This document shows, piece after piece, positions 17,728-31,130 of a stretch of DNA of 64,000 nucleotides. The DNA lies in NCBI RefSeq assembly GCF_055900595.2, contig NZ_CM148325.1, one strand, 5' to 3'. Positions within the stretch are counted from its first letter, which is position 1. The number at the start of each line of letters is the position of its first letter. The notes below the pieces were generated by a model. That model worked only from the letters and a program-made list of their open reading frames with translations. It was not told where the DNA came from and ran no database searches. A program made the translations under genes and the position numbers.

Positions 17728-18690
17728 GTGATGATCAAAACGCGTTTTTCTCGCTGGCTAACGTTTTTTACGTTCGCCGCTGCCGTGGCGCTGGCGCTAC
17801 CGGTAAAAGCCAACACCTGGCCGCTGCCGCCAGCAGGCAGTCGTCTGGTTGGCGAAAACAAATTTCATGTGGTGGAAAATGACGGTGGTTCTCTGGAAGC
17901 CATCGCCAAAAAATATAATGTCGGCTTTCTCGCTTTGTTACAGGCTAACCCCGGCGTTGATCCTTACGTGCCGCGCGCGGGTAGCGTGTTAACGATCCCG
18001 TTGCAAACCCTACTTCCAGATGCGCCGCGCGAAGGCATTGTGATCAATATTGCGGAACTGCGTCTCTATTACTACCCGCCGGGTAAAAATTCGGTAACCG
18101 TGTATCCCATCGGCATTGGTCAGTTGGGTGGTGACACGCTGACACCAACAATGGTGACCACCGTTTCTGACAAGCGTGCAAACCCAACCTGGACGCCAAC
18201 GGCAAACATTCGCGCGCGGTATAAGGCACAGGGAATTGAGTTGCCTGCGGTAGTTCCGGCTGGACCGGATAACCCAATGGGCCATCATGCGATTCGTCTG
18301 GCGGCCTATGGCGGTGTTTATTTGCTTCACGGTACGAACGCCGATTTCGGCATTGGCATGCGGGTAAGTTCTGGCTGTATTCGTCTGCGGGATGACGATA
18401 TCAAAACACTCTTTAGCCAGGTCACCCCAGGTACCAAAGTGAATATCATCAACACCCCGATTAAAGTCTCTGCCGAACCAAACGGTGCGCGTCTGGTTGA
18501 AGTACATCAACCGCTGTCAGAGAAGATTGATGACGATCCGCAGCTGCTGCCAATTACACTGAATAGCGCAATGCAATCATTTAAAGATGCAGCGCAAACT
18601 GACGCTGAAGTGATGCAGCATGTGATGGATGTCCGTTCCGGGATGCCGGTGGATGTCCGCCGTCATCAAGTGAGCCCACAAACTTTGTAA
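17728..18690 (+). CDS. ldtC: L,D-transpeptidase LdtC (YcfS) with LysM domain
   Basis: ORF from TTG 17725; consecutive GTG/ATG candidates at 17728/17731; signal peptide, YkuD catalytic motif (HGTNADFGIGMRVSSGCIRL). Confidence 0.92.
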   Translation: MMIKTRFSRWLTFFTFAAAVALALPVKANTWPLPPAGSRLVGENKFHVVENDGGSLEAIAKKYNVGFLALLQANPGVDPYVPRAGSVLTIPLQTLLPDAPREGIVINIAELRLYYYPPGKNSVTVYPIGIGQLGGDTLTPTMVTTVSDKRANPTWTPTANIRARYKAQGIELPAVVPAGPDNPMGHHAIRLAAYGGVYLLHGTNADFGIGMRVSSGCIRLRDDDIKTLFSQVTPGTKVNIINTPIKVSAEPNGARLVEVHQPLSEKIDDDPQLLPITLNSAMQSFKDAAQTDAEVMQHVMDVRSGMPVDVRRHQVSPQTL

Positions 18691-18699
18691 ATCCTGAAT

Positions 18700-18739
18700 A
18701 AAAAAATCCCCGCGACACGGCATGTCGCGGGGAAAAAAA
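18700..18739. terminator. Bidirectional rho-independent terminator between convergent ldtC and bhsA
   Basis: aaaaaaa-tccccgcgacacggcatgtcgcgggg-aaaaaaa: GC stem flanked by A-tracts on both sides. Confidence 0.7.
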
Positions 18740-18772
18740 TCAGCAGTAGCAGGCATTAATGAGGGTTAATGC

Positions 18773-19030
18773 TTATTTATAAATTACTGCTGTTCCATGG
18801 AGGGTATTCGGACCGGTTACAGAAGTAATACGGAAAGATTTCGCGCCCATCTCATCCGCTTTTTGCGCCAGCTGCTCTTCCAGCGATCCCAGATTTGTCC
18901 CCGCGTTAGCACTGATAGTACCGACTTTTTGTTGGCCTTCTGGCGTTGACTGAACTTCGACAGCCGCAAAGCTGGCAAATGACATGGAGCTTAAAATCGC
19001 CGCAGCGATGAGGGTTTTTACGTTTTTCAT
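18773..19030 (-). CDS. bhsA: Stress/biofilm outer-membrane protein BhsA (YcfR), DUF1471
   Basis: 85 aa with signal peptide, MKNVKTLIAAAILSSMSFASFAAVEV... Confidence 0.93.
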   Translation of the reverse strand: MKNVKTLIAAAILSSMSFASFAAVEVQSTPEGQQKVGTISANAGTNLGSLEEQLAQKADEMGAKSFRITSVTGPNTLHGTAVIYK

Positions 19031-19096
19031 AATAGTGGCCTTATGCAGATGAATGACGTCGCAAGCAATTACTTAACGATCGATAACTAAATGATA

Positions 19097-19116
19097 GATG
19101 TGATCTGGATCACATA
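19097..19116. promoter_or_regulatory. Near-consensus CRP-type palindrome (TGTGA-N6-TCACA) in the bhsA-comR divergent promoter region
   Basis: agATGTGATCTGGATCACATac; half-sites 19099-19103 and 19110-19114 match the CRP consensus exactly. Confidence 0.45.
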
Positions 19117-19270
19117 CAAGATATTTTTTATAACAATCATTAATTAATTTAAAAATCTTTAAATTTCAGTTAAATAGAAAGCAATTATTTTTATGGTTTG
19201 TGGACTGGTGAACGGAGGTGATTATTTTTATAATAACCTTTCATTCACAGTCACCAGGTACAACGGCATC

Positions 19271-19903
19271 ATGGCAACTGACTCAACACAATGTGTAAAA
19301 AAAAGCCGTGGCCGCCCAAAAGTGTTCGACAGGGATGCCGCGCTTGATAAGGCCATGAAATTGTTCTGGCAGCACGGTTATGAAGCGACTTCTCTTGCGG
19401 ACCTCGTCGAAGCGACCGGAGCCAAAGCGCCCACGCTATACGCGGAATTTACCAACAAAGAGGGGTTATTCCGCGCCGTACTCGACCGCTATATCGATCG
19501 TTTTGCCGCTAAGCATGAAGCACAGCTGTTTTGTGAAGAGAAAAGCGTGGAGTCTGCGCTGGCTGACTATTTTGCTGCCATCGCCAACTGCTTTACCAGC
19601 AAAGACACCCCGGCTGGCTGCTTTATGATCAACAACTGCACCACCCTCTCCCCGGATTCCGGAGATATCGCCAATACGCTGAAATCACGCCATGCGATGC
19701 AAGAGCGCACTTTGCAGCAGTTTTTATGTCAACGACAAGCGCGCGGGGAAATCCCGACCCACTGTGATGTGACGCATCTGGCTGAATTCCTTAATTGTAT
19801 TATTCAGGGGATGTCGATCAGCGCACGCGAAGGTGCATCGCTGGAAAAACTGATGCAGATTGCCCGAATGACTTTGCGTTTATGGCCCGAACTGGTGAAA
19901 TAA
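19271..19903 (+). CDS. comR: TetR-family transcriptional repressor ComR (YcfQ)
   Basis: ORF 19193..19903; ATG at 19271 gives MATDSTQCVKKSRGRPKVFDRDAALDKAMKLFWQHGYEATSLADLV... 210 aa (TetR HTH). Confidence 0.93.
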   Translation: MATDSTQCVKKSRGRPKVFDRDAALDKAMKLFWQHGYEATSLADLVEATGAKAPTLYAEFTNKEGLFRAVLDRYIDRFAAKHEAQLFCEEKSVESALADYFAAIANCFTSKDTPAGCFMINNCTTLSPDSGDIANTLKSRHAMQERTLQQFLCQRQARGEIPTHCDVTHLAEFLNCIIQGMSISAREGASLEKLMQIARMTLRLWPELVK

Positions 19904-19904
19904 G

Positions 19905-19950
19905 GCGCAAAAAAAAGCCCCTCAGCCTGAGCGAATGGGGGGCTAAATTG
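19905..19950 (-). terminator. Probable rho-independent terminator downstream of ycfJ
   Basis: On the minus strand, stem agcccc...ggggct followed by a run of T (plus-strand aaaaaaaa at 19907-19914). Confidence 0.5.
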
Positions 19951-19965
19951 CAGAATACAGCCTTG

Positions 19966-20505
19966 TTATACTTTGTTATTCAAAATCAGTTGCCCGTTGC
20001 CATCTAACGGGATCTGCGTACCCGGATCGCGGTCCATGCGGATTTTGCCCTGCTGATCGCCAATCTTATAGGTCACATCATAACCGAGCATTTTTTCTGA
20101 CTTGTCATACACCGTTTTACAACGCTGTTGCGTAGTCGTGTAAGTATCGCTTTCCTGGAGAGAGCCCTGGATCTGGTTACCGGCATAGCCACCTCCCAGC
20201 GCCCCCACAACAGTGGCGACATCTTTACCGCGACCACCGCCAAACTGATGCCCTATCACGCCGCCAGCAACAGCGCCGAGCACCGACCCGGTAATGCGAT
20301 TTTCATCCTGCACCGGTCGACGATGGGTCACTGTGACGTTGCGACACTCCTGACGCGGTGTTTTAACCGTTTCCTTGATTGGGGTTGCAGAAACAACCTG
20401 AGCGTATTGCGGGCCACGTTCAAACACGTTCAGACTGGCCACTGCCGCTACGCCCAACGCAGCTGCGACACCAATCCCCATACCCGCCAACATTGATTTA
20501 TTCAC
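19966..20505 (-). CDS. ycfJ: Glycine-zipper (Rick_17kDa_Anti-like) outer-membrane lipoprotein YcfJ
   Basis: ORF 19966..20544 (TTG); GTG at 20505 preceded by aggagg RBS gives (M)NKSMLAGMGIGVAAALG... 179 aa. Confidence 0.9.
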   Translation of the reverse strand: MNKSMLAGMGIGVAAALGVAAVASLNVFERGPQYAQVVSATPIKETVKTPRQECRNVTVTHRRPVQDENRITGSVLGAVAGGVIGHQFGGGRGKDVATVVGALGGGYAGNQIQGSLQESDTYTTTQQRCKTVYDKSEKMLGYDVTYKIGDQQGKIRMDRDPGTQIPLDGNGQLILNNKV

Positions 20506-30969: not shown

Positions 30970-31130
30970 AATTGAGAGTGCTCCTGAGTATGGGTGCTTT
31001 TTTTACGTTCTCACGCGTGGCAAGGGGGGAGAGCCTCGCCGTGTACAGGGCATCTAAGCGCCCTTTATTTATTACACAGAGTAAAATAATTCAGTGCCGA
31101 TTTGTTTGACGGCTATCACGTTTCAACTTC
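30970..31130 (-). promoter_or_regulatory. ptsG promoter and 5' UTR (Mlc/CRP-controlled; SgrS target around the RBS)
   Basis: Established K-12 regulation; AT-rich region with TGTGA-like motifs upstream of the ptsG ATG; exact sites not mapped here. Confidence 0.4.

Follow-up and report, generated by a model that had tools for sequence, protein, structure and literature searches.

The intergenic region between the divergent genes bhsA and comR very probably carries a near-consensus cAMP-CRP site that lies within the sigma-70 core promoter of bhsA and represses it by occlusion, with ComR most likely acting on an adjacent palindrome. Both the site and the CRP-bhsA interaction are already known from ChIP-seq tables and from data derived from EcoCyc and RegulonDB; what is made explicit here, and is not spelled out in the literature examined, is how widely the site is conserved and that it is centred at -22.5 from the RNA-seq start. 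The site ties carbon status to BhsA, an outer-membrane protein of stress, biofilm formation and copper permeability. All coordinates refer to the window, the 64,000-nucleotide stretch of DNA that was analyzed.

The bhsA-comR locus

The locus is the E. coli segment mfd - ldtC - bhsA / comR - ycfJ - ndh, with the same gene order as in K-12 MG1655. Of 5426 complete E. coli genomes, 5425 match a 1.4-kb query around the site and carry the annotations bhsA and comR, with bhsA described as a multiple stress resistance protein. RefSeq, for identical E. coli genomes as well as for K-12, gives the two genes the same identities as the original prediction had. The genes are placed as follows:

18773-19030, minus strand: bhsA (ycfR/comC), encoding an 85-aa DUF1471 outer-membrane stress protein; controlled by the CRP site
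19271-19903, plus strand: comR (ycfQ), encoding a TetR-family copper-responsive repressor of bhsA; divergent from bhsA

The 240-bp intergenic region differs from that of K-12 at only three bases, near 19197-19200 and far from the site, and 5105 of the 5426 complete genomes share the same 74-bp promoter core. Of the 5425 matching genomes, just 25 reach at least 99% identity over the 1.4-kb segment (18600-20000), the others lying at 95-99%. Set against the shared core, this makes the coding flanks unusually divergent for the lineage of the strain while the regulatory core is fixed. In K-12, a small RNA, BhsB (b4832), is annotated over the 3' end and terminator of bhsA; a counterpart is present in the window at 18701-18800 on the minus strand, with a GC-rich hairpin and T-run at about 18700-18740.

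A near-consensus CRP site between the two genes

Positions 19097-19116 read GATGTGATCTGGATCACATA in the letters of the window. The 18-mer within them, ATGTGATCTGGATCACAT (19098-19115), lies between bhsA and comR and departs from the consensus core ATGTGATCTAGATCACAT by one central mismatch, with TGTGA and TCACA exact, as had been claimed from inspection of the sequence (17 of 18 positions, both half-sites intact). It is the sole match at three or fewer mismatches in the 64-kb window, where shuffled sequences lead one to expect 0.01, which upholds the view that such a match is unlikely by chance. The feature is taken here at the size of a CRP footprint:

19096-19117, no strand assigned: CRP binding site, 22-bp footprint-sized window; core TGTGATCTGGATCACA at 19099-19114, centre at 19106.5

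Scoring used a symmetrised CRP weight matrix built from 106 ETEC ChIP-seq sites (Haycocks et al. 2015, Table 1), with the bhsA site itself excluded. The bhsA site scores 21.3 bits against a matrix ceiling of 22.0, above every one of the 106 training sites (maximum 20.1, median 13.0), and exceeds the second-best matrix match in the window by 9 bits; it thus combines the two-fold symmetric 22-bp TGTGA-N6-TCACA form with a high matrix score, and the scoring that had been proposed as a check came out in its favour. The third-ranked match in the window, at 12.1 bits, begins at 31105: TTTGACGGCTATCACG (31105-31120) has the same letters as the ETEC ptsG CRP ChIP-seq site, and since the ptsG site is among the training sites, its recovery confirms only that the scan locates it.

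The palindrome occupies the interval 68-85 bp upstream of the bhsA ATG (19030), with 76.5 bp between the site centre and that ATG, and 156 bp separate its other end from the comR ATG (19271), in line with the distances first given for it.

CRP occupancy and the sign of regulation

The 111 high-confidence CRP ChIP-seq targets that Haycocks et al. (2015) report for ETEC H10407 include TGTGATCTGGATCACA, under ycfQ/bhsA, with a peak at 1274886 assigned to those two genes. CRP therefore occupies the identical 16-mer in vivo, on literature evidence from ETEC H10407 and from neither K-12 nor the present strain, and the absence of occupancy that would have spoken against the site is not what the ChIP data show. 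A passage in PMC5521740 also credits Zhang et al. (2007) with an EMSA of CRP upstream of ycfR.

The sign of control comes from PMC6121374, whose interactions were drawn from EcoCyc 22.0 and RegulonDB 9.4. There CRP is a repressor of bhsA, and bhsA belongs to an incoherent type-2 feed-forward loop that passes through comR as intermediate and has repression on all three arrows; the interaction sought in RegulonDB is thus on record in data derived from it and from EcoCyc. The same work gives a cAMP series for bhsA (presumed log ratio) of 0, -0.24, -0.42, -0.96, -1.09, -1.66, -1.74 and -1.94, a monotonic fall in a dose-response microarray in which the gene is classed as CRP-repressed. Together, the ChIP-seq peak, the database-derived loop and the cAMP series identify bhsA as a recorded CRP target that the site represses rather than activates. 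The proposal that the palindrome mediates cAMP-CRP control of bhsA is accordingly borne out by occupancy, by the database-derived listing and by down-regulation with cAMP, as well as by the conservation described below.

Architecture of the bhsA promoter

In the 5' RNA-seq of Druzhinin et al. (2015; PMC4488433), bhsA transcription begins at K-12 position 1169019(+), 54 nt upstream of the gene, and the promoter from -40 to +4 reads atatcttgtatgtgatccagatcacatctatcatttagttAtcg. This is the reverse complement of window positions 19081-19124, so the start falls at 19084. The elements of the promoter are:

19084, minus strand: bhsA transcription start, an A preceded by T; UpA-primed start seen in stationary phase (5' RNA-seq)
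19091-19096, minus strand: -10 element TATCAT, -12 to -7, from the published promoter sequence
19114-19119, minus strand: -35 element TTGTAT, -35 to -30, with one base in common with the CRP core
19120-19135, minus strand: A-rich tract GTTATAAAAAATATC upstream of the -35 element, with the conserved block TTTTTATAA

Among the aligned orthologous loci, the -10 element takes the form TAT(C/G/T)AT, with A2 and T6 invariant and a T-1/A+1 start, and in most genera outside Escherichia the -35 element is a near-consensus TTGACG one base further out. The A-rich tract is probably an UP-like element of the bhsA promoter.

With the start at 19084, the CRP core (TGTGATCCAGATCACA on the minus strand) spans -30 to -15 and is centred at -22.5, filling the entire spacer between TTGTAT and TATCAT. 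The 22-bp window, at -33 to -12, runs into TTGTAT on one side and takes in the first base of TATCAT on the other, an overlap with the core promoter elements of the kind seen in occlusion. Activating sites are centred near -41.5 in class II, or near -61.5, -71.5, -82.5 or -92.5 in class I. The centre here lies at -22.5 for bhsA and at about -134 for the inferred comR start, which makes the site an activator site of neither class for the known promoters.

Two other promoter assignments were considered and set aside. Were CRP a class II activator of bhsA, with a start near 19065, the -10 element required (GTTAAG/TAAGTA) would be a poor one, and the mapped start is at 19084. A TTCACC-17-AATAAT promoter, obtained from a consensus scan and from the pattern matches of a 2014 SELEX-chip study by Shimada, is contradicted by the RNA-seq start. 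Further downstream, the 5' UTR of bhsA contains a conserved block, CAGATGAAT (19046-19054; ATTCATCTG in the mRNA), at about +31 to +39 and just before the ribosome-binding site, which could be a small-RNA target or a translational control element.

Conservation across Enterobacteriaceae

With 12 ComR orthologues aligned, 80 loci were collected from distinct Enterobacteriaceae species. A divergent bhsA is present in 75 of the 80, and in all 75 the best intergenic match to the CRP matrix lies at the homologous position, with scores of 13.8-21.3 bits. Across the collected loci, the site centre is 72.5-84.5 bp from the bhsA ATG; its distance from the comR ATG is 159.5-169.5 bp, mostly 164.5-166.5 bp, in the roughly 73 loci of usual intergenic length. 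For a base-by-base comparison, 74 distinct intergenic regions from about 25 genera were aligned (the window and 73 loci of usual intergenic length), and the site is found at the same position in all 74 and in three further loci checked separately; the palindrome is therefore kept in related species, contrary to the lack of conservation that would have told against it. Within the site, no locus departs from GTGA and TCA, all but one (73 of 74) have the adjacent C, and the four central bases vary freely, so that constraint falls on the half-sites and not on the spacer between them. Position by position, conservation tends to be highest where the CRP matrix carries most information (Spearman 0.81, 74 loci).

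The surrounding layout is retained as well: the Buttiauxella and Dryocola loci repeat the order -35, CRP site, -10 and T-1/A+1, and both carry comR. According to the literature, E. fergusonii has bhsA and lacks comR. One typical Enterobacteriaceae bhsA-comR locus with a CRP site came from an assembly titled Chryseobacterium sp. 18061 (CACSKA010000011.1), which is probably mislabelled or contaminated.

These data bear on the alternative that the palindrome has no regulatory role and arose by chance or from constraints on the promoter. In its favour, the spacer is AT-rich and bound by H-NS, and promoter spacers are under some constraint. Against this stand the very low number of matches expected per window, the ChIP-seq occupancy, the cAMP dependence of bhsA expression and a conservation that keeps the shape of the motif over 74 species while the centre of the spacer diverges freely. 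We give this alternative next to no credence, and occupancy and conservation have already effectively refuted it. Constraints on the promoter spacer or the -35 element, beyond those imposed by CRP alone, could nevertheless account for some of the half-site conservation.

Proposed repression by occlusion and its limits

Occlusion is the mechanism that we infer from the -22.5 geometry: a dimer filling the spacer between the -35 and -10 elements would block the promoter, in agreement with the cAMP data. At high cAMP, a CRP dimer would bind the core promoter DNA of bhsA with high affinity and bend it, RNA polymerase would be kept from forming a closed complex and bhsA would be repressed. With glucose present and cAMP low, the promoter would be free of CRP and its activity would then be governed by copper-responsive ComR, most likely bound to a palindrome over the transcription start.

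Levels of cAMP are usually high in stationary phase. Yet published 5' RNA-seq (PMC4488433) finds bhsA well expressed in that phase, with most transcripts beginning one base upstream, UpA-primed, at the T-1/A+1 promoter. In stationary phase, then, repression by CRP must be incomplete or give way to other influences.

Possible action of the site on comR

A single CRP dimer might directly control the divergent comR as well as repressing bhsA. PMC6121374 treats comR as a CRP-regulated transcription factor within its incoherent type-2 loop, implying that CRP represses comR, and the ETEC ChIP-seq peak is assigned to ycfQ as well as to bhsA. The interval between the site and the comR ATG is also tightly conserved in length and has almost no indels. 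Evidence on the comR promoter itself points the other way, however. The element proposed for it is:

19229-19234, plus strand: probable comR -10 element TATAAT, within TATTTTTATAAT (19223-19234), which is invariant in 74 loci

This is the only strongly conserved -10 element for comR (TATTTTTATAAT is invariant, unlike the poorly conserved -35 region), and it puts the CRP centre near -134. A site near -134 falls outside the usual class I and class II CRP positions. Moreover, comR and its -10 element (L058, 1454-1466; L067, 1451-1463) persist in two Enterobacter genomes where a deletion has removed bhsA and, with it, the whole CRP site in L058 and half of it in L067. Primary evidence for a CRP-comR edge was not found in the literature examined, and a comR start was absent from the 5' RNA-seq supplements searched. 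On balance, direct control of comR by this dimer is possible but doubtful, and repression of bhsA is the role that we assign to the site.

A comR-directed promoter using TATAAC (19129-19134), which would place CRP at about -34.5, was also considered. Its A2 is variable and its position 6 is mostly C, which is unlike a -10 element, and the UP-like tract of bhsA is a better fit for these bases.

A candidate ComR operator

The original prediction had also offered the palindrome at 19098-19115 as an operator for ComR. Under this reading, ComR would bind there, alone or sharing the site with CRP, and would repress bhsA until released by copper. According to reviews of Mermod et al. (2012), ComR is a repressor of bhsA that binds the promoter region of the gene in vitro; palindromes are the targets of TetR proteins, and this one lies inside the bhsA core promoter. 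The details fit CRP instead. Conservation of 19098-19115 takes the form expected of CRP, with constant TGTGA and TCACA around a variable centre; CRP is bound there in vivo; and a second, more strictly conserved palindrome overlaps the transcription start:

19069-19090, no strand assigned: 22-bp palindrome TTAGTTATCGATCGTTAAGTAA (minus-strand letters), inverted repeat I1, bhsA -6 to +16; candidate ComR operator

This palindrome lies directly downstream of the bhsA -10 element and over the start, where repressors typically bind. No block of the intergenic region is more strictly conserved than its core, TTAACGATCGATA, which is essentially invariant in the 74 loci and ahead of the CRP site in this respect. 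Distance also favors it: a review (PMC10141476) states, in its account of Mermod et al. (2012), that the ComR site is 60 bp upstream of comC, and exactly 60 bp separate the bhsA ATG from window position 19090, where the palindrome has its upstream edge. By that account the match is to the edge of 19069-19090 and not to the CRP palindrome, which begins 68 bp from the ATG. From strict conservation, overlap with the start and the 60-bp distance, we infer that the palindrome at 19069-19090 is likely to be the ComR operator, and binding of ComR to 19098-19115 is highly improbable; the earlier suggestion is thus not supported. A nucleotide-resolution operator was not found in the literature examined, and 19069-19090 now provides a specific candidate for one. 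Published ChIP-exo of YcfQ/ComR in K-12 yielded three weak peaks elsewhere and none at bhsA-comR and, with no peak anywhere at the locus, does not discriminate between the two palindromes.

The two sites are close neighbors: the centres of the CRP window (19096-19117) and the palindrome at 19069-19090 are 27 bp apart and their edges about 5 bp, and their spacing is strictly conserved in all genera examined. Bound side by side, CRP and ComR might contact one another, with cooperation or competition as the outcome, much as CytR and CRP do. The conserved spacing fits such contact, and it is equally explained by both palindromes overlapping one core promoter; we regard an interaction as very unlikely. 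If it did occur, the bhsA promoter would integrate carbon status and copper through protein-protein contact, as opposed to through two independent repressors.

Comparison with known systems

The closest counterpart is the known CRP site of bhsA-comR itself (EcoCyc/RegulonDB; Haycocks et al. 2015), which has the identical 16-mer between the same gene pair, so that only the strain differs.

In its arrangement, the locus resembles the type I organization of TetR-tetA and AcrR-acrAB: comR and bhsA are divergent, and a palindrome overlaps the promoter of the target. The difference is that the palindrome at 19098-19115 has the specificity and occupancy of CRP, and the TetR-type operator is more probably the one at 19069-19090.

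Repression by promoter occlusion is established for CRP at galP2 and cyaA P2. The bhsA promoter is like these in that a consensus-like CRP site overlaps the core promoter and expression drops as cAMP rises; it differs in that the site lies almost exactly in the spacer between the -35 and -10 elements (-22.5) and is a nearly perfect match to the consensus. Most CRP sites are weaker and are placed for activation, at about -41.5 or -61.5 or still further upstream. In the survey of Haycocks et al. (2015), the common positions were about -40.5 and -92.5. Beside these, bhsA offers a clean textbook case of a near-consensus CRP site used to repress, one that sits precisely in the spacer between the -35 and -10 elements and persists across Enterobacteriaceae.
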